DNA of 64,000 bases from an uncultured Ignavibacteria bacterium (GTDB lineage: Bacteria; Zixibacteria; MSB-5A5; CAIYYT01). The translations under genes and the position numbers were made by a program. The stretch spans positions 33,634 through 97,633 of the forward strand of contig CAZQBX010000002.1 in the NCBI GenBank assembly GCA_964592145.1, read 5' to 3'. The notes under the pieces were generated by a model. That model was not told where the DNA came from. It did no database searches and saw only the letters and a list, made by a program, of their open reading frames with translations. Every line of letters starts with the position of its first letter. The first letter of the stretch is position 1. Positions 33,481 through 61,653 of this stretch are shown one piece after another.

Positions 33481-35331
33481 TTAATTCACTGCCTCGAGCG
33501 TCTCTTTGATCTCGCCACAACGCAACATCATTGCGCCATAGAACGAATTGTAAACCGTGTCGACCGTTTGCAGCCAATAGGCGCCTTTGTTATCGCGCGC
33601 CATCGGACAGAACGTCAGGTAGTAATTCATGCCACTGCCGTGACCGAATGCACTCTCAAGCTCAATAATTGCTTTGGAGAGATGGAAGAAGGCGTCGCGC
33701 GCTCCTTCTAAGTCCGTGGCAACGGCGGCCTTCTCGGAATTCTTCTGCATCTGCTGTGCCAATTCCATCCAGCGACTATGTGCGGAGCCGGAGAAAAGGG
33801 ACATATCCACGTTACCAATAGTTTTGGCAAGTTGGGCGGCTGATTGTTGAGAGGCTATGACATCGTCCGCCGCCAACGCCATTTGGAACTTGAAATAATC
33901 ATTGTAGAGCGGAGTCAAGGCATCCCGAGCGGTCTCGGAAACCGCAAGTGTCTCGTTCGTTGATGAGGATCCTTTTGTTGCGGAACTGTGCTCATGCGAT
34001 GCCGGTGCGGCGCCGCCTTCGGGTGACATCATGCTTGGCTTCGCCTGAATCTGCAGTTCGCTGTCGATCTTGAAGGCACCGTTAGTGACGACCATGTCGC
34101 CCTCGACCAGTCCGTCAAGCACGACATAGTGATCGTCGATCCGGGAACCGAGCGTTATCTCGCGACCTTCAAACAAGGGACCGTCTTCGCTGGGAAGCTG
34201 CAGATAAACTACTGCCCGTTTGCCGGTGAAAAGGACAGCGGAGGCCGGCACGAGGAGTGAATTATCGGCTCCGCCGGCGCGTGTATCGACCGCAGACTTT
34301 GCCGTAGCCGTGACAAACATGTCGGGCTTTAGCCGCCCGCGGGCATTATCGACAACTGTACGCACTTGAACAGTGCGAGTCATCGGGTCGACTGTCGGGT
34401 TGATGAAACTAACCTTAGCAGCAAACTCCTCGCCTGGGATCGACTGTGAGTTAAACTTGATTTCATCGCCGATCTTGATGAGCGCCAGATCCGATTCGTA
34501 AGCTTCGAACACCGCCCATAGCTTCGAGAGGTCAGCAATTCGGAATAAGTCCATTCCGGTTTCGACGTACTGCCCTTCGACTACCATCTTCTCAACAACA
34601 GTCCCGCCATCGGGAGCGACCACCGAGATATGATCAGCGACGTCAGTCTGCGATTCAATACTTGCGATTTGTTCATCACTGAAACCAAGGAGTCGCAGTT
34701 TCTCAATGGCGGCGCGAACAGTTGCCTCGGAAGTGCTCTTCAGGATTTCGCTGTTTGATTCAGCCACACTCTGGAGTGACACCCTGGCTGCGATGAGCTC
34801 CTTCTGTGCGGACAGGAGTTCAGGCGAATAGAGTTCAAGCATTTTTTCGCCGCGCCTGACGGGCTGACCTGTTGTGTTGATGTATAGCCGGTCGATACGT
34901 CCACCGATCCGGGCGGTTATACGGGAGAGTTTTGTCTCATCGGCTGACAGTTTGCCGTAGAGTCGCAATTCGCTTTGTGCGGCACCTCGCGTAACCGGCG
35001 AAGTCGAGATTTGTGCAAGTTGTTTGGATGACTCGGACATCCGCAGTTGACGCGGACCGAGGTCTTCCGCGCCATCGGTCGTAAGTGGAATCAGATCCAT
35101 GAAGCAAATCGGACACTTGCCTTCTTTGGGTAGCTTGATCTGCGGATGCATCGAGCAAGTCCAGACCTGTGGCCCATTCGACGTTTCGCCTGACGCGCCA
35201 ATTTCTGGCGAAGTTGATTTTCCGCCGGAAAGGAGTGCACCGAGGGTGAAGGCGACAATCGTCACGGCGGCGATCGCTATCCAGAATGCCGGTTGTCTCA
35301 TCAGACCATTGCGATTGTTGAATTCATTCAT
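33481..35331 (-). CDS. cusB: RND efflux membrane-fusion protein (CusB-like) with N-terminal metal-binding motif and C-terminal DUF3347-like extension
   Basis: WTCSMHPQIKLPKEGKCPICFMDL (CusB/SilB N-terminal metal site), HlyD-like beta-barrel/lipoyl core, and a roughly 180-aa helical C-terminal tail. Confidence 0.85.
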   Translation of the reverse strand: MNEFNNRNGLMRQPAFWIAIAAVTIVAFTLGALLSGGKSTSPEIGASGETSNGPQVWTCSMHPQIKLPKEGKCPICFMDLIPLTTDGAEDLGPRQLRMSESSKQLAQISTSPVTRGAAQSELRLYGKLSADETKLSRITARIGGRIDRLYINTTGQPVRRGEKMLELYSPELLSAQKELIAARVSLQSVAESNSEILKSTSEATVRAAIEKLRLLGFSDEQIASIESQTDVADHISVVAPDGGTVVEKMVVEGQYVETGMDLFRIADLSKLWAVFEAYESDLALIKIGDEIKFNSQSIPGEEFAAKVSFINPTVDPMTRTVQVRTVVDNARGRLKPDMFVTATAKSAVDTRAGGADNSLLVPASAVLFTGKRAVVYLQLPSEDGPLFEGREITLGSRIDDHYVVLDGLVEGDMVVTNGAFKIDSELQIQAKPSMMSPEGGAAPASHEHSSATKGSSSTNETLAVSETARDALTPLYNDYFKFQMALAADDVIASQQSAAQLAKTIGNVDMSLFSGSAHSRWMELAQQMQKNSEKAAVATDLEGARDAFFHLSKAIIELESAFGHGSGMNYYLTFCPMARDNKGAYWLQTVDTVYNSFYGAMMLRCGEIKETLEAVN

Positions 35332-50995: not shown

Positions 50996-51301
50996 TTATG
51001 TCCTGTGCGGTTTGAAGGCAAACTCTCGGATGCTCATCGACTCGGGTACCGGATATACGCCGGCGCCAGCGCAAAGTGGGCAAGGGCTCTTGTCAGACTG
51101 GCGAATCTCGATCATGCCGGATCCTCTACAAGCGTAACAGTCCTTGCCGGAAGTATCCTGTCCCTTGCCAAAGCAGTACATGCAGACGTGGGCGTGGTTC
51201 GGCGTTAGGCAGCGGTTGTCGACCCAGCCGCGCCCGAGGCATTCCGGGCAGGTTTTTGGCGGCCCTTCACCGGATCGCGGCCGATGCTTCTCGGTTGACA
51301 T
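50996..51301 (-). CDS. small DnaJ-type zinc-finger protein (4x CxxCxGxG)
   Basis: CPECLGRG, CMYCFGKG, CYACRGSG, CPLCAGAG; the last gene of the hydrogenase operon. The start is uncertain (ATG at 51301 or the ORF-track 51328). Confidence 0.6.
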   Translation of the reverse strand: MSTEKHRPRSGEGPPKTCPECLGRGWVDNRCLTPNHAHVCMYCFGKGQDTSGKDCYACRGSGMIEIRQSDKSPCPLCAGAGVYPVPESMSIREFAFKPHRT

Positions 51302-51782
51302 AGATTTTCTCTCCTGTATGCAATGCAAGCCATTGATCGATGCTCGCCAACGCCGGTTCGATAGCAGCCATTACCTTGGCGGTCATGGTCTCGCTCAGCG
51401 TAGTCACATCAGCGACCTCAACGGCAAGCACATCAATATGCTTCGGCATTTGGTATCCAAGCTGACTCCCCAACTTTAACGCCGTCGGGAGACTCATCTG
51501 GTGGCTGGAGGTGAGATTTCGCGATGGTGTCAGTGTCCCCATTGGGAAGAAGTGTAGGGTTCCAGGCGGAACGCCGCCGGTCACGATACTGTCAATGAGT
51601 AGGACTTTGCTTCTTCTGTTGAGCAAATCCAGCAGGCCGAATCCGGCAACCGGAGCGAATATTACCTCGACCCGGTCACACTCGTGCCGTCTTGTGTGCA
51701 GTATCCCGGCAATTGTCGGTCCGAACGAATCGTCTGACAGAACTTCGTTTCCAAGACAAAGAATCAAGAATGGCTTCAACAT
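51267..51782 (-). CDS. [NiFe]-hydrogenase maturation endopeptidase (HyaD/HycI/FrhD family)
   Basis: LGNEVLSDDSFGP and the DxxH region; overlaps the mvhA stop. Confidence 0.85.
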   Translation of the reverse strand: MLKPFLILCLGNEVLSDDSFGPTIAGILHTRRHECDRVEVIFAPVAGFGLLDLLNRRSKVLLIDSIVTGGVPPGTLHFFPMGTLTPSRNLTSSHQMSLPTALKLGSQLGYQMPKHIDVLAVEVADVTTLSETMTAKVMAAIEPALASIDQWLALHTGEKIYVNREASAAIR

Positions 51783-53260
51783 TGCCTTTTGACGACCTCG
51801 ATTACTTCGCCACTCTCCGCAGAATGAACAACAATCTCCAGAGGCATCTCACCCGGAAGCGAGTGCGTCGCGCAACCAAAACATGGATCGTAAGCGCGAA
51901 AAGCCATCTCAATCCGATTGAGTACGCCGTCGGTAATGGTCGTACCCTTCTTGATCAACCCCTCGGCGGCGCGCTTGATTGACATCGTAATCGGCGCATT
52001 GTTGTTGGTCGTACCGACAATGAGATTTGCTTCGGTGACGATTCCATTCTGATCGGTCTTGTAGTGGTGCGTCAAGGTACCGCGCGGCGCTTCGACGGTG
52101 CCGACGCCCTCGCCAACGATGCCTGTCGGAGGTTCGAGGATGTGATCGGAAGTTATCTCGTCATCCTTGGCTTGCTCCAAAGTGGCTTCGCAGGCAAACA
52201 TCAACTCGACTACGCGCGCCCAGTGTGTTGCCAACGTAGAGTTGACCGGTATCTTCCCAGTGCGATCTCCAGTCAACGTTTCAAAGTAGCGTTCGTACTC
52301 GGCGTGTGCGAGCGGTGTCGCCATACCATCGGCGACATTGAGTCGAGCCAGCGGCGTTGCTTTGTAAACACCAGAGTCCATTCCATCGACGAACCCCTTC
52401 CAACCGACTTTCTTCAAGTAAGGGTACTTGAGATAAGAATAGGGCTCGACGCGCTCTTCAACATACTGGAGATAGTCCTTCGGCTCGTATTTGGCATGTT
52501 CCGATCCGTCGGGTGCTGTTACACGTACTTTGCCGTCATAGAAGGTGACGTGATTGTTGTCATCAACCAGTCCCATATTGTAGGTTTGGTGCGCATAGGA
52601 ATCAGAAAGAATCATTTCGAGATAAGTCTTGTTCGCAAGAACGATATCATTCAAAACCTGAATCGTGAACTTGGCGAACTCGACCATTTCTTCACCGATC
52701 TTGATGATTTCCTGTTGCTCTTCTTTGGTGACGCGTTTGCTCATTCCGCCTGGTAAGGCGGTGACCGGGTGCACTTTCTTACCGCCGATGATCTCGATCA
52801 CACGCTGACCGCGGGCCCGCTGGGCAATGACCTTCTTGCCGACATCCAGACCTACCTTGGCGATTACACCGAGGATATTGCGCTCAGCTTTCGGTGCGTC
52901 GGGACCACAGACGAAGTCCGGCCCGCCCAGAGCATAAAAGTGAGTTGTGTGATCACCTGCATAAAACGCGTTGTAGACTAATTCGCGCAATTTGCGCGCC
53001 GCCGACGGAATAGTAACGCCGTATACGGCATCAGCGGCCTTTGCCGACGCCATGTGATGTGCGTCAGGGCAGACACCGCAGATTCGGGTGGTAATGCGCG
53101 CCAATTCTTCGACCGGCCGCCCCTGACAGAACTTCTCGAAACCGCGAAGTTCCGGAACCTGGAAGTAACAGTTGGCCAACTCACCATCGTCGTTGATGAA
53201 CAGGTGAATCTTGCCGTGCCCCTCAAGGCGCGTGATCGGATCGATGACAATGCTCTTCAT
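51776..53260 (-). CDS. mvhA: [NiFe]-hydrogenase large subunit, Mvh/group-3 type
   Basis: N-terminal RICGVC and C-terminal DPCFGCATH Ni-Fe ligands with a short post-His tail for protease cleavage. Confidence 0.93.
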   Translation of the reverse strand: MKSIVIDPITRLEGHGKIHLFINDDGELANCYFQVPELRGFEKFCQGRPVEELARITTRICGVCPDAHHMASAKAADAVYGVTIPSAARKLRELVYNAFYAGDHTTHFYALGGPDFVCGPDAPKAERNILGVIAKVGLDVGKKVIAQRARGQRVIEIIGGKKVHPVTALPGGMSKRVTKEEQQEIIKIGEEMVEFAKFTIQVLNDIVLANKTYLEMILSDSYAHQTYNMGLVDDNNHVTFYDGKVRVTAPDGSEHAKYEPKDYLQYVEERVEPYSYLKYPYLKKVGWKGFVDGMDSGVYKATPLARLNVADGMATPLAHAEYERYFETLTGDRTGKIPVNSTLATHWARVVELMFACEATLEQAKDDEITSDHILEPPTGIVGEGVGTVEAPRGTLTHHYKTDQNGIVTEANLIVGTTNNNAPITMSIKRAAEGLIKKGTTITDGVLNRIEMAFRAYDPCFGCATHSLPGEMPLEIVVHSAESGEVIEVVKRQC

Positions 53261-54228
53261 ACTTGCACCCTCCGCAGTAGCGACCCGGCCATGCTGAAGC
53301 GATAGAATGTTCCCAGCGGATCGGGAATGGTGTTGATGATCTGTTCGATCTCTTCCGGATCAGTAGAATCGATCACGCTGGCCAGAGCCGAGACCATCTT
53401 GGCACCCTGGTCATTGATGTTTGACGGGAGCCCATAGCAGCCGCGACACGGCATTCCCGCTTTGACGCATTTGGCTCCACAGCCGGAACGAGTTGCCGGT
53501 CCAAGACAGACGATGCCTTGCTCCATCAGACATAGATTCGGATCAGTGACCTTGGCAAACGGGCGTGTGAAGGATTTGATCTTCTTGATATTGCGTTCGC
53601 GCGGGCACTCGTCACAACAGCTTTTGTCGGTTGCGCCGAGAACTGTCCCCTTGGGAGGCAGTGGCTTGTTGTTCTGGAGAATGTCGATTACCGCCATGAC
53701 CGCGTTGACTATTTGATCGGACTGGGGCGGACAGCCGGGAATGTAGTAGTCAACCTCAACTACCTGATCGAGTGATCGAACTGTATTCCAGAACTTCGGA
53801 ATGGTAATGGTCCCTTCGGAAACCTGAACTTCCGGCTGCGGTTCGACCTTGCCACCATTGGCGAGCGAAGGTGATTTGTGATAGACGTAATCGAGGATTA
53901 TCTCTTTGTTGAAGAAGTTCGCCAACGCCGGAATGCACCCTTCGCCGGCACAACTGCCGAAGGCCACCAGGACCACCGATTTTTGGCGCAGCAGTTCGGC
54001 GAGTTCGTAGTTTTCACTAGTCCGAATTGCGCCGTTGAAGAGCGTTAGCGTGATTGACTTGTCTTCCATTGCGCGGACATCGTCGTACTTGGTATCCATC
54101 GCGCAGGGCCAGAAAACGACATCAAAGAAATTCGCCACATCGAGGATCTTCTCTTCGATATCGAGAATGGATATGTCGCAGCCGCCGCATGAGGAGGCCC
54201 AGTATATGGCAAGTTTAGGTTTAGACAT
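53257..54228 (-). CDS. mvhG: [NiFe]-hydrogenase small subunit, MvhG type
   Basis: [23 protein letters not shown] proximal cluster motif. The start ATG at 54228 sits 7 nt after GGAGGTG; the ORF-track start at 54249 is not needed. Confidence 0.9.
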
Positions 54229-54670
54229 GTTGATGCACCTCCTCGGCATTGGGGTCGAAGTTGTAGTCGTGCAATTTCAATGGTCCCAAGGCGCGAATCT
54301 GTTCCGTGAACTCGGTGATGACCTCCTGGAACCGGCCGCCTTCCGAAGCGGAAACCCATTCGAGACGCATCCGGTTGCGAGCGATGCCTAATTCCTGAAG
54401 TAACAGCTGCGTCAGGGGCATTCGACGCATGCACTTGTAGTTTCCTTCGATGTAGTGACAATCGCCGGGATGACAGCCGCAAATCAACACACCGTCGGCG
54501 CCGCGGCGGAAGGCATCGAGGATAAATGCCGGATCGACGCGGCCGGAGCACATCACGCGAATGCTGGTCACATTGGGCGGATAGTGCATGCGTGCAGTGC
54601 CGGCGAGATCGGCGCCGGTATAGCTGCACCAGTTGCAGAGAAAGCCGACAATTTTCGGTTCAAAGCTCAT
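54221..54670 (-). CDS. mvhD: methyl-viologen-reducing hydrogenase delta subunit MvhD (FlpD domain)
   Basis: CNWCSY...CSGRV...[10 protein letters not shown] cysteine pattern of MvhD. Confidence 0.9.
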
Positions 54671-56427
54671 GACAATATCCCCTCAATCTGCGCATAGATT
54701 TGTTCATCGGTGAAGTGGCGTCCCTTGATCGCTCCTGAAGGACAAGCCGCGACACAGGTACCGCAGGCCTTGCACAGCGCGGAGTTGACGTGGCTGATCT
54801 TCTTTTCGAGATCAAAATCGATCGCGTGATATGGACACATATCATTACAGATTTTGCAGCCGGAACAAAGCTCGTCCTGGACCTCCGCGTATGTGGCGTC
54901 CATCAGGACTTCGCCCTGGCACAATAGCCTCATGACCTGTGCGGCAGCTGCCGAGCCTTGCGCCACAGAGTCGGGAATATCCTTTGCACCCTGGCAGACA
55001 CCGGCGAGGAAGATTCCCTCGGTTGAAGTTGATACCGGCGCCAGCTTGGGATGGGATTCAATAAACCAGCCATCGGCCCCGACCGAGATGTTGAAACGCC
55101 GGGCAATGTCCTTGGCATCGGCCCGTGCCTCAAGGGCGGTACACAGTACGATCATGTCAACTGGAACTTCGCGGTGCTTGCCGATCATCGTGTCTTCGCA
55201 GCGAACGATAAGTGCGCCTTCGGCTTTCTGTGATTGGCTGGCCGGGACAACTTCGGCACCTTTGCCGCGGATGACATTGCCGCCTTCATCGAGAATTCTC
55301 TGGTAGAATTCCTCGTAACCTTTTCCGAATGAGCGCATGTCGATATAGAACTGATAAACATCAGCCTTGGTCTTCTCCATGATCAAGTGCGAGAACTTGA
55401 GGGCATACATGCAGCAAACGCGGCTGCAGTACTTGTGGTGATTTTCGTCGCGACTGCCGATGCAGTGGATGATTGCTATCCGGCGCGGTTCTTCCCCATT
55501 TTCCAGACAGATCTTTCCACCGGTCGGACCGGCGGCATTGTTCATCTTCTCAAACTCAATGGAGGATACGACGTTGGGATAACGGCCATAACCGTACTGC
55601 TTCATCGGCGTTGGGTCGAAATCGTCAAAGCCGGTTGCCAGGACGACCGCGCCAACTTCGACTTCCTCGAAATCTGCGCGATCACCGTAGTCGATGCAGT
55701 CCTTGGGGCATACCTTCTCGCAGATCATACACCCGCCGGTCTTGTAGTGGATGCAGTTTTCGCGTACGATATAAGGTACGTTCGGGACTGCTTGTCGAAA
55801 TGGCAGTGTGATAGCGGCGTTGGGACCCAGGTTGAGTTCGCGGTGATTGATGACCCGCTCCTCAATGTCCTGCATCTTGATATGCCCGGTCGGGCAGTAT
55901 TTGGCACAGGCACCGCAGAGGATGCAAGCCTCGGAGTCCAGATCGAACGGCGTCGATACATCTCGATCCTGGCCACGATTGATAAAGGTCAGCGCGTGAG
56001 CACCGACAACTTCATCGCAGATGCGAACGCAGAGTCCGCAGAGAATGCAGGTGTAGGTTCCATGTCCCCAGCGTGGTTCCTTGACCCCGAACTTCGCCGC
56101 ATAGTGCTCCAGCAACGGAACCGGCGCGCAGTTGGCCATCAACATTTCCAGATTTGTGCGACGCGCATTAACTACGCGCGGCGTTTCGGTGAAGATTTCC
56201 AGACCGTCCCAGGCGGGATAATTGCAGGCCGTTACGATCTTGCTCCAACCTTTGTTGTTGCGAGCCTCCACGACACAGATTCGGCAGGCAGCATACGGAC
56301 TCATGAACGGGTAGTAGCAAAGAGTCGGAATCTCGATTCCCAACGACTGTGCGGCTCCCAGAATGTATGAGCCTTCTTCAACCTCGATTGCCTGGCCATC
56401 GATCTTAATCTTAACTGTTGCCATCAT
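54667..56427 (-). CDS. fusion: HoxU/NuoG-N-terminal-like [2Fe-2S]/[4Fe-4S] ferredoxin module + C-terminal half of HdrA
   Basis: Residues 1 to about 230 carry 2Fe-2S ([15 protein letters not shown]), a His-type 4Fe-4S ([16 protein letters not shown]) and two 4Fe-4S motifs ([21 protein letters not shown]). The rest matches the HdrA TrxR-like second half ([32 protein letters not shown]) plus the C-terminal 2x[4Fe-4S] ([24 protein letters not shown]). Confidence 0.8.
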
Positions 56428-56433
56428 TGTCTC

Positions 56434-58449
56434 CTAGGCCACACTCGCCGGCTGTTTTGCGGTTTCCTTGGGCTGCCAAAGTTCGCGCGCCCGCTGTTGG
56501 ATCTTGTCACCTTCGCCGCGCTTGACACGCTTGATTGAGTTGTAACGACAAATCTGGTAACAGGCGCCACATTGGATGCACTTGTCCTGAATTATCATAT
56601 GCAGGCGTTTGGGTTCGCCGACGATAGCGTTGGTCGGACAGGGTTTGACGCAGGCATGGCAACCTGTGCAGGTATTGTCGATGGCGTGCGCCACCAGTTC
56701 CTTGCAGACACCGGCCGGACAGCGTTTATCGCGAACGTGTGCGATGTATTCCTGGCGGAAATAACGGATTGTGGACAGCACCGGATTCGGTGCTGAACCA
56801 CCGAGTTGGCATAAACTGGTGTCGATGATGACCTGCGACAGTTCCTCGAGGTGTTCGATGTCCTCCATCGTGCCGTTGCCTTCGCAGATCTTGTTGAGAA
56901 TGTTCAGCATCACGACAATGCCTTCACGGCATGGCACGCATTTGCCGCACGATTCCTCCTGCAGGAACTTCAGAAAGTACCGTGCGACATCGACCATGCA
57001 GGAATCTTCATCCATTACGATCATGCCGCCTGAGCCCATCATCGAACCGGCTTTAGTGAGTTCATCGAAGTCGACCGGTAAGTCGAGCAGGCTGATCGGT
57101 TCATCCTCCTCGCGAATGTCGCCGTGCGCAACCATACTGGCGTGTACGGACGATTCGGAAGTTTCGACAATGAGAGTACCGCCTGATGGACCACCGGTTT
57201 GCACAGCTTTGAATCGTTTCTTATTAGGGACGCCGCCGCCGATGTCGTAAAGAATCTCGCGCAGGGTAATTCCCATTGGAACCTCGACCAGACCGGTGTT
57301 GTTGATCTTGCCCGTTAATGCAAATACCTTGGTGCCTTTGGAATTGGGGGTTCCGATCGAGGCGAAATATTCGGCGCCCTTCTCAATGATGACCGGGACG
57401 TTCGCCCAAGTTTCGACATTATTCAGATTTGAGGGTTTCTCCCAGAGTCCGGCTTCCACTGTGTGAATATACTTCGCCCGCGGTTCACCGACTTTCCCTT
57501 CAAGCGATGCCATTAAGGCGGTCGATTCACCGCAGACAAATGCGCCACCACCCCGGGATATTTCGATCTCGAAGTTGAACCCGGTCCCAAGAATATTCTG
57601 CCCGATCAGACCGTACTCACGCGCCTGATTCATCGCAATGGTCAGATTCTTAACCGCCAGGGGATATTCGTTGCGGACATAGACGAATCCGTCGTTACTA
57701 CCGATCGCAAACGCGCCGATGACCATCCCCTCAATGACCATGTGGGGATTGCCTTCAAGCAGGGAGCGATCCATGAATGCTCCGGGGTCGCCTTCGTCGG
57801 CATTGCAGATAACGTATTTGGGTTGGCCTTTGGCATTGCGGCAGGACTCCCACTTCCGGCCGGCTGGATACCCGCCGCCGCCACGACCACGCAATCCGGA
57901 TTTTTTGACTTCATCTATGATCTGCGTCGGAGCCATTTGGGTTAGCGCCTTCACCATTGCCTGGTATCCACCAAGGAGAATGTAGTCGTTGATCGAGGTC
58001 GGATCCATGTATCCGTTCCTGCCAAATATCAAACGCATCTGCTTCTTATAGAATGGTATGTCCTTTTCAAGTTTGATGACTTGCTGCGATTGTGGATCGC
58101 GATAGAGCAGTTTATTCACCAGATGGCCGCCCTTGATAGTCTGTTCCCAGATCAGCTTGGCATCCGCGGGGCGGACTTTCTGATAGAAGATGCCCTGTGG
58201 TTGGACGACAACCAACGGTCCGCGTTCGCAGAATCCGTGACAACCTGTTGTCTTGATCTCAACCTCGTTCTCCAGATGGTCATTGACGATTTCTTCTCGG
58301 AAAACCTTTGTGACGGCTTCACAACCACACGCCAGGCATCCAGTGCCGGCGCAGATGGTCAGGACCGTTTTGTTCGCATTGCGGTTGCTCTTGATCTTTT
58401 CGCGCAACTTTGTCAAGTCGCCAGGCGATTGAAGCTTTACGTCTTGCAT
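56434..58449 (-). CDS. NuoF-like NADH-binding FMN flavoprotein with N-terminal [2Fe-2S] and C-terminal 2x[4Fe-4S] (HydB/HndC/HoxF type)
   Basis: GRGGGGYPAGRKWE FMN/NADH site, SLBB domain, N-terminal thioredoxin-like Cys cluster (CAGTGCLACGCE), C-terminal CTGCHACVKPCP / CIQCGACYQICR. Confidence 0.92.
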   Translation of the reverse strand: MQDVKLQSPGDLTKLREKIKSNRNANKTVLTICAGTGCLACGCEAVTKVFREEIVNDHLENEVEIKTTGCHGFCERGPLVVVQPQGIFYQKVRPADAKLIWEQTIKGGHLVNKLLYRDPQSQQVIKLEKDIPFYKKQMRLIFGRNGYMDPTSINDYILLGGYQAMVKALTQMAPTQIIDEVKKSGLRGRGGGGYPAGRKWESCRNAKGQPKYVICNADEGDPGAFMDRSLLEGNPHMVIEGMVIGAFAIGSNDGFVYVRNEYPLAVKNLTIAMNQAREYGLIGQNILGTGFNFEIEISRGGGAFVCGESTALMASLEGKVGEPRAKYIHTVEAGLWEKPSNLNNVETWANVPVIIEKGAEYFASIGTPNSKGTKVFALTGKINNTGLVEVPMGITLREILYDIGGGVPNKKRFKAVQTGGPSGGTLIVETSESSVHASMVAHGDIREEDEPISLLDLPVDFDELTKAGSMMGSGGMIVMDEDSCMVDVARYFLKFLQEESCGKCVPCREGIVVMLNILNKICEGNGTMEDIEHLEELSQVIIDTSLCQLGGSAPNPVLSTIRYFRQEYIAHVRDKRCPAGVCKELVAHAIDNTCTGCHACVKPCPTNAIVGEPKRLHMIIQDKCIQCGACYQICRYNSIKRVKRGEGDKIQQRARELWQPKETAKQPASVA

Positions 58450-58970
58450 TACTTGGCCTCCCCTGACTTATGAACTCGTCCGGCGCGAACGTCGTTGAGC
58501 ATCGTTTCGGTCTTCGAGACGGTCATGTTACCAAAGTAAACTTCGTTGGCGGTCACGAGTGGTCCGAGGGCGCAGGCACCGAGACAGTTCACGGTCTCAA
58601 GGCTGATTTCGCCGTCGGGAGTGGTTTCTCCCGATTTGATCTTCAGGTCACGTTCCAGCTTGTCAACGATTACGGTCGCTTGCCGAACATGACAGGCGGT
58701 GCCGGTACAAACACAGATGTGGTTTTTACCTTTTGGCTTGAGGCTGAAGGTGCGATAGAAGGTTGCAACCCCATAAATCTGTGCAAGCGGCAATTTCATC
58801 GTTTTCGAGACAGCGCGCATCGCTGACTCCGGCAGATAACGATAGTGCTTTTGAATGTCCTGAAGGATCATGATGAGTGCCGACGCCTTGGCGCCATACT
58901 CGGCCACAATTTGATCGATCGCTTCCTGGACGTCATACTCTTCTTGCGGAGCCGCAGGTAATGTGGTCAT
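58449..58970 (-). CDS. NuoE-like thioredoxin-fold [2Fe-2S] subunit (HydC/HoxE/HndA type)
   Basis: CVCTGTACHV...CLGACALGP motif. ATG at 58970 follows GGAGGTGA by 8 nt; the ORF-track start at 59063 is a spurious extension. Confidence 0.88.
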   Translation of the reverse strand: MTTLPAAPQEEYDVQEAIDQIVAEYGAKASALIMILQDIQKHYRYLPESAMRAVSKTMKLPLAQIYGVATFYRTFSLKPKGKNHICVCTGTACHVRQATVIVDKLERDLKIKSGETTPDGEISLETVNCLGACALGPLVTANEVYFGNMTVSKTETMLNDVRAGRVHKSGEAK

Positions 58971-59932
58971 GATTGCTTCACCTCCGCAGGCAGTAGGTCT
59001 TTTTCGGGCATTGGTTGAGCCCCTGTGAGAACCGTCAAGTCGTGCTTTGGCCCCATTCGCCATTTGTCTTGAACGTCGAGTAGGCGCCCTTCACGATAGA
59101 CCCGGTCGCCCAGGATCATGCGGCGACGAGTTGGTGTCGGCACGCTGGGGCAGGCTTCGAAGCAGGCACCGCAGCTGTTGCATTTTGTGGTGTCCACATA
59201 CCGGGGTTTCTTCTTAAGTTTGACCGTAAAATTCCCCAAATACCCGGTCACCCCTTCGACTTCAGTCCAAGTCATTAGGCGAATGTTCGGGTGTTTTCCG
59301 ACTGCAACCATTTTCGGAGTCAGAATACAAGCGGCGCAGTCGAGCGTTGGAAACGTCTTATCAAACTGCGCCATATGACCGCCGATCGTGGTTTCCTTTT
59401 CGACGAGGATAACTTTGAAGCCGGCATCCGCAATTTGTAGGGCTGCTTCAATCCCGGCTATTCCGCCGCCGACGATGAGTACCTGCTGTTTGATCGGGAC
59501 GCGGCGCATGTCGAGCGGTTCATGAAGCCTGACTCTGGCAACCGCCGCCCGCACCAGTGAGATCGCCTTGGCCGTGGCAGCTTTAGGATCGAGAGTTACC
59601 CAGCTTACCTGTTCGCGAATGTTCGCCATTTCAAAGAGGTAGCGATTGAGTTGAGCGCGTTCGCAGGCGTTACGAAATGTCGGTTCATGCATCAGCGGAC
59701 TGCAGGCCGCGACCACGACGCGATTGAGTTTGAGTTCGCGGATGTCTTTCTGAATCAGTTCTTGTCCCGGTTCCGAGCACATGAACTTGTATTGCCTGGC
59801 GACAACCACGTTGGGAAGCGTGCTGGCGATCTCGGCGACCTTACCCACATCAACCATTTTGGCGATGTTGTTTCCGCAGTGGCAGACATAGACGCCGACG
59901 CGGATTTCCGAGCCGTTTTGCGACTGGTTCAT
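58967..59932 (-). CDS. N-terminal half of heterodisulfide reductase subunit A (HdrA): Cys-cluster domain + first part of FAD domain + one ferredoxin motif
   Basis: IRVGVYVCHCGNNIA...CSEPGQ...VVVAACSP, FAD dinucleotide fold VLIVGGGIAGIEAAL...LDCAACILTP, then CNSCGACFEACP. It ends without the second half of the TrxR-like fold. Confidence 0.8.
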   Translation of the reverse strand: MNQSQNGSEIRVGVYVCHCGNNIAKMVDVGKVAEIASTLPNVVVARQYKFMCSEPGQELIQKDIRELKLNRVVVAACSPLMHEPTFRNACERAQLNRYLFEMANIREQVSWVTLDPKAATAKAISLVRAAVARVRLHEPLDMRRVPIKQQVLIVGGGIAGIEAALQIADAGFKVILVEKETTIGGHMAQFDKTFPTLDCAACILTPKMVAVGKHPNIRLMTWTEVEGVTGYLGNFTVKLKKKPRYVDTTKCNSCGACFEACPSVPTPTRRRMILGDRVYREGRLLDVQDKWRMGPKHDLTVLTGAQPMPEKDLLPAEVKQS

Positions 59933-60813
59933 ACGGCCACCACTCCTTTCAACGCTATTAGCTTGCTTGGTTCGATAAGCAACTTATCGAGTCCGAGTTC
60001 CGCAGGCGAAAGTCCCAGTGCGATTCCGACCAAGTGCGTGAAGTATATGACCGGTATGTTGAAATCCGTCCTATACTGCGCGTTGACTTTGCCCTGAAAG
60101 CCCTCAAGATTCACGTGGCAGAGGGGGCAGGCAGTGGCGATGACGTCACCGCCGTTCTCCGCGGCTGCTTGCAGAAGTTCATGACAGAGTTTCAGGGCAA
60201 TCTGCTCGTCGGTGGTCATTAGCATTCCACCGCAGCAGCGTACTTTGGGCGGGTAGTGTACCGACTCGGCGCCGAGGGCACGGATCAGGGTGTCCATTGT
60301 CTGGGGATCATCTTTGTCGTCGAAGTAACCGACCGGCCGAACGATCTGACAACCGTAGTATGGGGCGACTTTAAGGCCGGTGAGCGGCCGCGTGACTTTT
60401 GTCTTGAGCACTTCAATTCCAACGTCATTGACGATGATATCAAGCGGATGTCGCACGTTGACTGGTTTGGTATAGGACATCCCCGCCGCAGCGAGAGCCT
60501 CGTTGATCTTCTTGCCTTCCTTGGGATCCCAGGCAATGTGTCGATTGGTTTTGCGAAGTATCGTGTAGCAGCTACTGCAGGGTGCGCAGATTTCGAGACC
60601 CATTTCCTGCGCCAGCGCCAGATTACGCGCACTGATCGAATAGCCGACGATTTTCTTGGCGGACATGTACATTGTCGCGCCACAGCAGTTCCAGTCCTCG
60701 ATTTCGCGAAGCCCAATTCCAAGCGATTTGAAGACAGCTCGCGTCGACTTGTCATATGGGCTGGCCGTATGCTCGAGACTACAACCAGGGTAGTAAGCAT
60801 ATTCTTGCATCAC
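59929..60813 (-). CDS. hdrB: heterodisulfide reductase subunit B (two CCG domains)
   Basis: YYPGCS / WNCCG and PYYGCQ / RCCGG motifs. Confidence 0.92.
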   Translation of the reverse strand: MMQEYAYYPGCSLEHTASPYDKSTRAVFKSLGIGLREIEDWNCCGATMYMSAKKIVGYSISARNLALAQEMGLEICAPCSSCYTILRKTNRHIAWDPKEGKKINEALAAAGMSYTKPVNVRHPLDIIVNDVGIEVLKTKVTRPLTGLKVAPYYGCQIVRPVGYFDDKDDPQTMDTLIRALGAESVHYPPKVRCCGGMLMTTDEQIALKLCHELLQAAAENGGDVIATACPLCHVNLEGFQGKVNAQYRTDFNIPVIYFTHLVGIALGLSPAELGLDKLLIEPSKLIALKGVVAV

Positions 60814-61397
60814 TGTTCTCCAAACTCGTTAGCTTTTTTGATGATTGCCTGGATTTGATTGACGCGCCTGATGCGTTTCGGAAGCAGCCCCATTCTGCCG
60901 CGTCGAATCATTGCAATCCCATAACCTGATGTCGTGAATAGTTTCACAATGTGTGAGCGCATAAAGTACTTGATGCCGAGGCCGAGTTCATAATTGCGTC
61001 CGTACTTATAGACGTTGTTCATAAATGTCGAGGAGAGGCTATGAACTGGGAAGTTGGCGGGATAGATCTTACGATGCATCGCGATTCGCTTCAGTGCATA
61101 CATTGTGTCTGTGACCTTGATTCCGGAAGGACATCTGACGGTACAAGCATAGCATGATGCGCAAATCCAGATCGCCTTGCTGCGCAGGATGTCCTCCAAG
61201 CGGCCGGCTCTGAACATTGCGATGGTTTGGCGTGGCGTGATGTCCATAAACTGCGATACCGGGCAGGTTCCCGTGCAGGTTCCGCACTGAAGACACTTCT
61301 TGATCTTGTGTCCGTCAGGAAATGAGTCGATTTGTTCCCAAAAAGCGGCGTGCAGTTCAGCCTCTGTGGGCGAAGTGGTCTTGATTGCTTCAGTCAT
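60810..61397 (-). CDS. hdrC: heterodisulfide reductase subunit C (2x[4Fe-4S])
   Basis: CLQCGTCTGTCP and CASCYACTVRCP. Confidence 0.9.
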   Translation of the reverse strand: MTEAIKTTSPTEAELHAAFWEQIDSFPDGHKIKKCLQCGTCTGTCPVSQFMDITPRQTIAMFRAGRLEDILRSKAIWICASCYACTVRCPSGIKVTDTMYALKRIAMHRKIYPANFPVHSLSSTFMNNVYKYGRNYELGLGIKYFMRSHIVKLFTTSGYGIAMIRRGRMGLLPKRIRRVNQIQAIIKKANEFGEQ

Positions 61398-61653
61398 AAG
61401 ACCTCAATAGATTGAAAGTACTCGAATTCGGAAGAGAGCACCGGATTGGGTTACTCACCGTGTCAACAAGATAGCATCGTGACACGCACCCAATTATCGA
61501 TGTTGATATCTATGATGGAATTAATCAGCTTTTCAGTTAGGTGTCAAGAGAAATATTTCACAAAGTAATAGTATAATATAAAACAAAGAATAGCTTCATT
61601 GTGGTGAAATACGCCCTCCTTTGAACTGATCAAGCCCGGTCGATTGGGTGGTG

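Follow-up and report, generated by a model that had tools for sequence, protein, structure and literature searches.

A split HdrA around an inserted BfuCBA module in a [NiFe]-hydrogenase/heterodisulfide reductase operon, a candidate tandem-bifurcating complex of uncultured bacteria

Organization of the operon

A DNA stretch of 64,000 nucleotides (positions 33,634 to 97,633 of contig CAZQBX010000002.1, assembly GCA_964592145.1; further called the window) from an uncultured Ignavibacteria bacterium, placed among the Zixibacteria in the GTDB lineage, was found to contain a minus-strand gene cluster (50996-61397) that combines genes for a heterodisulfide reductase (Hdr), a [NiFe]-hydrogenase of the Mvh type, and an NADH dehydrogenase-like module predicted to be of the Bfu type, the flavoprotein HdrA being divided into two pieces around the latter module. 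An open reading frame (ORF) check and scans with Pfam and NCBIfam models retrieved all eleven co-oriented, mostly overlapping genes that an earlier note on this DNA, made from the sequence alone, had listed, at the coordinates and with the assignments given there. Their order is HdrC, HdrB, the N-terminal part of HdrA (HdrA-N), a NuoE-like protein (BfuC), a NuoF-like protein (BfuB), a fusion of a HoxU-like (BfuA-like) domain to the C-terminal part of HdrA (HdrA-C; further called the fusion protein), MvhD, MvhG, MvhA, a maturation protease, and a DnaJ-type zinc-finger protein. Overlaps of 1-8 nucleotides, in the forms ATGA, TAATG and GTGATG, occur at seven of the nine junctions examined, which suggests that the genes form one translationally coupled operon. 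For the gene of the NuoE-like protein, the most likely start is not 59063 but the ATG at 58970, in an ATGA overlap with the stop codon of HdrA-N. Similarly, the most likely start of MvhG is the ATG at 54228, which overlaps the stop codon of MvhD; MvhG homologues have a length of 323 amino acids.

Split of HdrA

Three consecutive parts of the NCBIfam HdrA2 reference model (777 positions) were covered by three proteins of the operon. Residues 11-264 of HdrA-N (58967-59932; 321 amino acids) matched positions 1-256 (E 4.5e-115), residues 194-584 of the fusion protein (54667-56427; 586 amino acids) matched positions 259-640 (E 9.5e-130), and MvhD (54221-54670) matched positions 647-774. This excludes that the two HdrA-like ORFs represent unrelated complete proteins. 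Likewise, residues 8-263 of HdrA-N aligned to residues 10-266 of a solved HdrA (8rvu_a; E 7e-103) and the fusion protein to residues 245-653 of the same chain (E 1e-110), the overlap coming only from a resemblance between the ferredoxin motif that closes the HoxU-like part and motif 1 of the ferredoxin domain inserted in HdrA. The halves are complementary on both references, in agreement with the split around the NADH module that the earlier note had proposed. In addition, the HoxU-like::HdrA-C fusion was recovered, as the part matching HdrA2 is preceded by a Fer2_4 domain of the HoxU/NuoG type (residues 4-99) and two [4Fe-4S] motifs (residues 126-181).

These alignments place the cut after the first and before the second CX2CX2CX3C motif of the ferredoxin domain inserted in HdrA. 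HdrA-N encompasses the N-terminal domain of HdrA, the initial part of the domain that binds flavin adenine dinucleotide (FAD) and resembles thioredoxin reductase (TrxR), with GGGIAG and a CxxC motif (C199/C202), a CX2CX2CX3CP motif, and a tail. Motif 1 (C251-C261) closes its HdrA-homologous part, and motif 2 (C225/233/236/240) is located in the fusion protein. Ligand conservation was examined in an alignment of 13 orthologous sequences with four phylum-level labels, in which all 16 cysteines of four adjacent motifs (C251-C261 of HdrA-N, and C127-137, C168-178 and C225/233/236/240 of the fusion protein) were invariant. The same held for the N-terminal domain cysteines C17/19/52/77 and the CxxC pair beside FAD in HdrA-N, as well as for the [2Fe-2S] site C37/48/51/68, the TrxR-domain cluster C322/334/338/339 and the cysteines of the C-terminal ferredoxin domain in the fusion protein. 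The tail of HdrA-N (residues 265-321; 58970-59140) consists of 57 conserved amino acids that have no counterpart in canonical HdrA, and is replaced by a short linker in relatives in which HdrA-N is fused to NuoE. The best 120 clusters of HdrA-N homologues all have this shortened form (314-329 amino acids). A normal HdrA fold is expected to arise from the two pieces together, in which motif 1 of HdrA-N and motif 2 of the fusion protein would jointly restore the inserted ferredoxin domain. A single-sequence AlphaFold2 prediction of concatenated HdrA-N and fusion protein, with a predicted local distance difference test score (pLDDT) of 34.7 and a predicted template modelling score (pTM) of 0.28, was too poor to use.

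Inserted Bfu module

The genes lying between the HdrA pieces are identified by sequence as a true BfuC/BfuB/BfuA set of the HydABC-type bifurcating family. The NuoF-like protein (BfuB; 56434-58449; 671 amino acids) displays a thioredoxin-like (Trx-like) [2Fe-2S] domain, Complex1_51K, SLBB and NADH_4Fe-4S domains, and a C-terminal 2x[4Fe-4S] domain. Its best match among solved structures was 7t2r_B, the HydB subunit of the NiFe-HydABCSL enzyme of Acetomicrobium mobile, over nearly the full length (E 2e-231), followed by WorABCSL (9mqx_B), 8a6t_B, 7q4v_B and 9n5u_B, a set of bifurcating enzymes that includes three HydABC hydrogenases and NfnABC; NuoF proteins of complex I scored far lower. This match and the cluster domains at both ends bear out the description as a HydB-type NuoF with extra FeS domains. 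The features of BfuB, namely the N-terminal Trx-like [2Fe-2S] domain, the domain for flavin mononucleotide (FMN) and NADH, the B1 cluster and the C-terminal 2x[4Fe-4S] domain, are all present with invariant cysteines. The B2 cluster of the A. mobile protein is bound by C438, C476, H525, C531 and C536, of which the histidine is absent from non-bifurcating homologues (Schut 2022). The equivalents in the window are C484, C522, H571, C577 and C582; C484, H571, C577 and C582 are invariant in the 13 sequences, and position 522 is occupied by Cys, Ser or Thr, a position at which Thr occurs in about two-thirds of the BfuB sequences (Schut 2022).

The NuoE-like protein (BfuC; 58449-58970; 173 amino acids; Pfam 2Fe-2S_thioredx, E 1.8e-50) was closest to 7t2r_C (E 1.8e-39), and its [2Fe-2S] ligands C88/93/129/133 are invariant. 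BfuA proteins carry a [2Fe-2S] cluster A1 and [4Fe-4S] clusters A2 and A4, type 2 being devoid of A3 and A5 (Schut 2022). Residues 5-199 of the fusion protein aligned end to end with residues 5-200 of the type-2 BfuA WorA (9mqx_A), and the His-ligated cluster motif HxxxCxxCxxxxxC was not found between residues 83 and 125 of the fusion protein in the 13-sequence alignment. The BfuA of the window, for which no A3 is predicted, is hence type-2-like, and it is encoded as a fused domain instead of a free subunit. NCBIfam HoxE and HoxU models also scored well on the NuoE-like protein and on the N-terminus of the fusion protein, respectively.

A separate feature of BfuB is an insertion of 26 residues (residues 429-454; 57088-57165; ETSESSVHASMVAHGDIREEDEPISL) relative to the A. 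mobile BfuB, kept in 13 of 13 orthologues, which may form a family-specific contact surface.

Hydrogenase and HdrBC subunits

The hydrogenase part consists of a large subunit of the group 3c type (MvhA; 51776-53260; VhuA model, E 2.8e-120), a small subunit (MvhG; 53257-54228; VhuG model, E 1.4e-61), both under the equivalog cut-offs of these models, and the [2Fe-2S] adaptor MvhD (Pfam FlpD, E 8.2e-56). MvhA contains the motifs RICGVCPDAHH and DPCFGCATH as well as a C-terminal extension for proteolytic maturation. VhuA was its top-scoring model (401.7 bits), and no HoxH model occurred among the matches listed. The endopeptidase for hydrogenase maturation (51267-51782) matched TIGR00072 (E 1.4e-27) and Pfam HycI.

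HdrC (60810-61397; Pfam Fer4_8) possesses two CX2CX2CX3C [4Fe-4S] motifs (C35/38/41/45 and C79/82/85/89). HdrB (59929-60813) matched Pfam CCG in two stretches (E 2.4e-27) and TIGR03288 under its cut-off (E 1.8e-63). It keeps both full CCG motifs (C11, C43-C44 and C76/C79; C155, C193-C194 and C229/C232), which makes it the putative disulfide-reducing site. The cluster ligands of HdrB, HdrC and HdrA and the CxxC near FAD are invariant across the four phylum-level labels.

Distribution and relatives of the cassette

A scan for similar loci, taking one genome per species, revealed that the gene order from HdrC to the protease is kept in 16 loci (L001-L014, L017 and L023; two of them end at a contig edge), originating from metagenome-assembled genomes (MAGs) labelled Zixibacteria, GN15 or 'uncultured Ignavibacteria'. 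The same operon was present in contigs of KSB1 (L026), Eisenbacteria (L027) and Thermoanaerobaculaceae (L028). The synteny search for HdrA-N, NuoE, NuoF and the fusion protein, as suggested in the earlier note, returned this order in more than 20 independent MAG loci. Its concern that the gene order might be a common, already characterised hydrogenase subtype applied in part: the arrangement is common, with four phylum-level labels, and no characterisation of it was found. At the 90% identity level, the fusion protein was represented by at least 120 clusters over its full length (66-97% identity). The nearest unsplit relatives were deltaproteobacterial hdrCBA-mvhDGA loci (L015 and L016; 57-63% identity). 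As to taxonomy, L001 and L005 share 97-98% identity with the window, which makes a Zixibacteria genome its most likely source. Loci that are 85-98% identical to the window (L001-L005, L012, L013 and L023) bear the labels 'uncultured Ignavibacteria', 'candidate division Zixibacteria' and 'uncultured bacterium', indicating that the taxonomic labels of these MAGs are inconsistent.

An exhaustive search of representatives at 50% identity yielded about 12 further clusters with the BfuA-like::HdrA-C architecture, in which the cassette occurs beside other partners. One locus (L029) encodes an acyl-CoA dehydrogenase, the electron-transferring flavoprotein (ETF) subunits EtfB and EtfA, an HdrA-N::NuoE fusion, NuoF, the fusion protein and an HdrD-like protein; another (L032) encodes EtfA, HdrC, HdrB, HdrA-N::NuoE, NuoF, BfuA::HdrA-C::MvhD and a CCG protein. 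A third locus (L033) encodes an LdhH/GlcD-like CCG flavoprotein, HdrA-N::NuoE, NuoF and the fusion protein, and a fourth (L031; 51% identity) a GltD/NfnB-like protein, the fusion protein, MvhD, MvhG and MvhA. In these relatives, the cassette is covalently joined to HdrA halves at both of its ends, as HdrA-N::NuoE and as BfuA::HdrA-C(::MvhD). No other argument is as strong for a single complex comprising all parts and for a cassette that serves as a reusable core.

Two of these loci show further rearrangements. L033 (3149-7866) is permuted, the HdrA N-terminal domain (corresponding to residues 7-112 of HdrA-N in the window) being located at the C-terminus of BfuA::HdrA-C, and the FAD-binding start of HdrA being fused to NuoE. 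In L031 (96-6409), the closest sister, the gene upstream of that for the fusion protein joins an NADH_4Fe-4S segment of the NuoF type to a GltD/NfnB-like flavoprotein; anything further upstream is lost at the contig start.

Upstream region and accessory genes

The 256-bp region upstream of hdrC contains, on the minus strand, a conserved block (61542..61566; ACTTTGTGAAATATTTCTCTTGACA / ACTTTGTGAAAnnnnTTCTCTTGACA) that is invariant between the window and six related loci save for four central positions, the flanking intergenic DNA having diverged. The block resembles a -35 box (TTGACA) with a directly adjoining half-palindrome, TGTGA-N6-TCTCT, comparable to a CRP/FNR half-site. This conservation and resemblance make the block the probable regulated promoter of the operon. 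A generic scan for sigma-70 promoters and terminators returned no more sites than shuffled controls and did not call this block. A second TTGACAC occurs near 61463, also upstream of hdrC. In the Eisenbacteria locus (L027; 1-434) and the Thermoanaerobaculaceae locus (L028; 346-2766), the operon is directly preceded by genes for sigma-54-dependent response regulators, which in L028 are accompanied by a histidine kinase gene.

The last gene of the operon encodes a small DnaJ-type CXXCXGXG zinc-finger protein (50996-51328; Pfam DnaJ_CXXCXGXG, E 4.2e-9) with five CxxC pairs, and an alternative start at the ATG at 51301 would result in 101 amino acids. This protein, possibly an assembly or maturation factor, follows the protease in the Zixibacteria, KSB1 and Thermoanaerobaculaceae loci too. 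In the KSB1 locus (L026), hypF, hypC and hypD come after the operon. The operon of the window is flanked by unrelated, housekeeping genes, namely a radical-SAM MiaB-like gene and the gene for GTP cyclohydrolase I. No tRNA genes or Rfam matches were found in the window.

Comparison with known systems

All six subunit types of the MvhAGD-HdrABC and Vhu-Hdr complexes of methanogens, with all cluster and NiFe ligands, are shared by the operon, and both HdrA halves match solved HdrA chains best (E about 1e-100). Unlike in MvhAGD-HdrABC, the HdrA segments, although all present, are distributed over two polypeptides with the BfuC, BfuB and BfuA genes between them, and BfuA would take the place of free ferredoxin or polyferredoxin as the immediate partner at low potential. 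The inserted ferredoxin domain of methanogen Hdr is the low-potential exit, wired directly to polyferredoxin (PMC13518236, PMC9012536). In the Hdr-Vhu-Fwd and Fdh-Hdr-Fmd complexes, this polyferredoxin is bound non-covalently and leads to formylmethanofuran dehydrogenase, whereas in the window a fused BfuA would lead to a flavoprotein for NAD(H) and ferredoxin. It is unlikely that the disulfide of coenzymes M and B (CoM-S-S-CoB) is the substrate of the enzyme encoded in the window.

The only characterised HdrA-Bfu enzyme found is the class II benzoyl-CoA reductase (BCRII) of Geobacter metallireducens, Bam[(BC)2DEFGHI]2, which established two bifurcation modules in series and in which an HdrA-type flavoprotein likewise goes together with an adaptor resembling MvhD, a subunit resembling HdrBC/D and a NuoEFG-like BfuCBA. 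According to a cryo-EM preprint (10.64898/2026.04.10.717634), its Bfu-type part BamGHI confurcates NADH and reduced ferredoxin, and the electrons pass from cluster I3 of BamI to E1/E2 in the C-terminal ferredoxin-like domain of the HdrA-type BamE and then, by way of BamF (MvhD-like), to the FAD at which bifurcation takes place. They leave via E4 to BamD (HdrBC-like) and ETF, and, at low potential, via the inserted ferredoxin domain (E5/E6) to BamBC (10.64898/2026.04.10.717634). The operon of the window differs from Bam in that a [NiFe]-hydrogenase would occupy the mid-potential input port, in that the fusion of BfuA lies within the inserted ferredoxin domain, in that HdrA consists of two polypeptides and not of a fused pseudo-dimer, and in that HdrB retains both full CCG motifs. 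No tungsten gene of the AOR family (BamB/BamC type) was found in the operon or its flanks. The positions of BfuA at the inserted ferredoxin domain and of MvhD beside MvhG-MvhA follow from gene and domain order, an order that does not amount to three-dimensional wiring.

Several other systems share parts of this arrangement. NiFe-HydABCSL (NiFe-Bfu) of A. mobile has the full Bfu cofactor set, including the B2 ligands, in common with the window; in that type 3 enzyme, the hydrogenase docks directly on BfuA via A3, whereas the Mvh (3c) hydrogenase of the window would be attached through MvhD. In HdrA paralogues of ANME-1, an NfnB-like domain interrupts the inserted ferredoxin domain within one polypeptide (Chadwick 2022, PMC9012536), in contrast to the three-subunit Bfu insertion and the physically split HdrA of the window. 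Among the relatives, L031 echoes the ANME-1 case by its GltD/NfnB-like gene immediately upstream of that for the fusion protein. Two known enzyme types were considered as assignments and rejected. A Hox-type (3d) HoxEFUYH enzyme does not fit the VhuA-like large subunit and a NuoF with Bfu-specific N- and C-terminal cluster domains. FlxABCD-HdrABC complexes bind NAD(P)H by a flavoprotein of the FlxA type, together with FlxBCD; the only NAD(H) module of the operon is of the NuoE/NuoF type.

The idea that Bfu modules are attached only to hydrogenase catalytic subunits was not upheld, as numerous partner modules are given in the survey of the Bfu family, with Bam-Bfu as the member that has an HdrA module and no Hdr/Mvh type included (Schut 2022). 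A paper on Zixibacteria RBG-1 names an 'MvhADG/HdrABC' complex, does not mention NuoEF or a split HdrA, and proposes that the electrons from H2 consumption reach an 11-subunit complex I by way of ferredoxin (Castelle 2013); the complex named there could be the split form or not. Genome papers noted nuoEFG-mvhD-hdrA operons in Desulfotignum. Full-text searches returned no description of Hdr-Bfu, Mvh-Bfu, a split HdrA or HdrA-NuoE. The combination as such is not new, since coupling of HdrA and Bfu is already known from the benzoyl-CoA reductase (BamBCDEFGHI); what is novel is the wiring and the partners. No description was found of an HdrA split in this way, of Bfu attached at its inserted domain, of a pairing of this kind with [NiFe]-hydrogenase plus HdrBC, or of the wider cassette family.

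Proposed complex and electron flow

A function in electron bifurcation or confurcation involving NAD(H), H2 and a disulfide may be inferred from these modules. It is highly probable that the operon encodes one integrated multi-subunit complex, and a reasonable case can be made for attachment of the Bfu part at the low-potential port of HdrA. The interpretation favoured here, which we hold with about even confidence, is a single soluble complex of MvhAGD-HdrABC-type subunits and BfuABC that performs tandem bifurcation from H2. The direction of electron flow and the net reaction are put forward tentatively, with somewhat less than even confidence. In such a complex, an unbroken Fe-S chain would run from the FAD of HdrA over the clusters of the inserted ferredoxin domain and those of BfuA to B1 of BfuB and its FMN. 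Three ports could be assigned, the hydrogenase as mid-potential input, because MvhD-MvhG-MvhA follow the C-terminal ferredoxin domain of HdrA, HdrC and HdrB as high-potential exit, and Bfu as low-potential exit. MvhAG would first oxidise H2, and the FAD of HdrA would bifurcate its electrons. The high-potential electron would pass through HdrC to HdrB and reduce a disulfide, and the low-potential electron would enter BfuA and not free ferredoxin. The BfuBC core would then share the low-potential electrons between NAD+ and ferredoxin (Fd), with a net reaction of about 4 H2 + 2 RSSR' + NAD+ + 2 Fd(ox) -> 4 thiols + NADH + 2 Fd(red). This order would be the reverse of that in Bam, where confurcation precedes bifurcation. 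By our own estimate, H2 at about 10 Pa (E' about -300 mV) together with a disulfide at about -140 mV would lift the second electron to about -450 mV. This would suffice for the Bfu input of about -390 mV. A plain NiFe-Bfu hydrogenase would be unable to work in this direction with so little H2.

Seen more widely, the split-HdrA/BfuCBA cassette might be a so far unrecognised, general-purpose 'double bifurcation' core, in which the low-potential output of the HdrA flavin is wired into Bfu, opposite to Bam, and which is plugged into varied partners. These would be Mvh and HdrBC in the window, ETF/acyl-CoA dehydrogenase and HdrBC/D in L029 and L032, and a lactate dehydrogenase-like CCG protein in L033. 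This generalisation is possible, albeit rather doubtful.

Several points weigh against tandem bifurcation from H2. The complex is known from its genes alone, from which both the reassembly of the split domain and the distances between clusters are derived. In BCRII, Bfu is the confurcating input of NADH and reduced ferredoxin and not an output (10.64898/2026.04.10.717634). To feed electrons of about -500 mV or lower into a Bfu core whose normal input is about -400 mV seems a waste, except where there is very little H2. Zixibacteria RBG-1 is devoid of coenzyme M and coenzyme B biosynthesis (Castelle 2013). Furthermore, the ETF-linked relatives have no hydrogenase, and L029 has no MvhD either, indicating that the cassette can work without H2 input and that port assignments may differ.

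Alternative interpretations

Adopting the flow of BCRII, the same complex could run the other way, Bfu confurcating NADH and ferredoxin into the HdrA flavin so that these donors drive disulfide reduction in place of or besides H2, or it could serve as an H2-evolving fermentation sink with HdrA as the hub. Such a role for Bfu as confurcating input to an HdrA-type flavin has been shown by experiment for BCRII (10.64898/2026.04.10.717634), Bfu enzymes are reversible (Schut 2022), and Zixibacteria RBG-1 contains neither Rnf nor another H2-evolving hydrogenase to re-oxidise ferredoxin (Castelle 2013). In addition, Bfu is the only pyridine-nucleotide port in the ETF-linked and LdhH-like relatives without hydrogenase. 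However, the Bfu of BCRII enters via the C-terminal ferredoxin domain and an MvhD-like subunit, whereas in the window this port adjoins MvhD-MvhG-MvhA and BfuA sits at the inserted domain. Moreover, by our estimate, H2 would form only at a very low partial pressure if electrons of about -390 mV were confurcated with those of thiols, at about -140 mV. Reversed flow, the main rival, is considered unlikely, while still carrying appreciable weight.

Alternatively, none of the flavins would bifurcate, and the Fe-S clusters would form a wire in a Hox-like NAD+-reducing [NiFe]-hydrogenase, with HdrBC as a side branch or relic. The good scores of the HoxE and HoxU models mentioned above favour this, and some complexes outside methanogens that contain NuoF and HdrABC are probably non-bifurcating (Buckel and Thauer). 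Yet BfuB retains all features that distinguish bifurcating proteins (the N-terminal [2Fe-2S] domain, a C-terminal 2x[4Fe-4S] domain for ferredoxin binding, and the His/Cys ligands of B2), the ligands of HdrB, HdrC and HdrA and the CxxC do not vary among the four phylum-level labels, and the large subunit is VhuA-like and not HoxH-like, which renders a plain wire improbable. That Mvh-Hdr and NuoEF/HoxU are merely adjacent, independent enzymes, or that the HdrA split is an assembly or frameshift artefact, has as its only point in favour that all data come from MAGs. BfuA and HdrA-C are read in one frame, more than 20 assemblies made independently in different studies show both the split and the gene order, the best 120 homologue clusters for each half have the same shortened or fused lengths, and the other junction is fused in relatives. 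Recurrence, homologue lengths and these fusions effectively refute both possibilities, to which we attach next to no probability.

Implications

Flavin-based electron bifurcation enables strict anaerobes to live at the thermodynamic limit, and to our knowledge no more than four families of bifurcating modules are known. Benzoyl-CoA reductase is so far the only enzyme in which two such families have been shown to be joined (2026 preprint). The present operon would provide a second, differently wired example of an HdrA-Bfu enzyme, attached to a hydrogenase and occurring in mostly uncultured bacteria of sediment and soil, whose MAGs bear at least four phylum-level labels. Should the proposed wiring be correct, a distinct enzyme lies concealed behind the 'Mvh/Hdr' annotations of MAG studies, and the links between H2, NADH, ferredoxin and the thiol pool in the host organisms need rethinking. 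The natural fusion variants would then offer material on the stacking of bifurcating modules. If tandem bifurcation holds as well, trace H2 would allow organisms such as Zixibacteria to refill their NADH and ferredoxin pools, at the expense of a disulfide.

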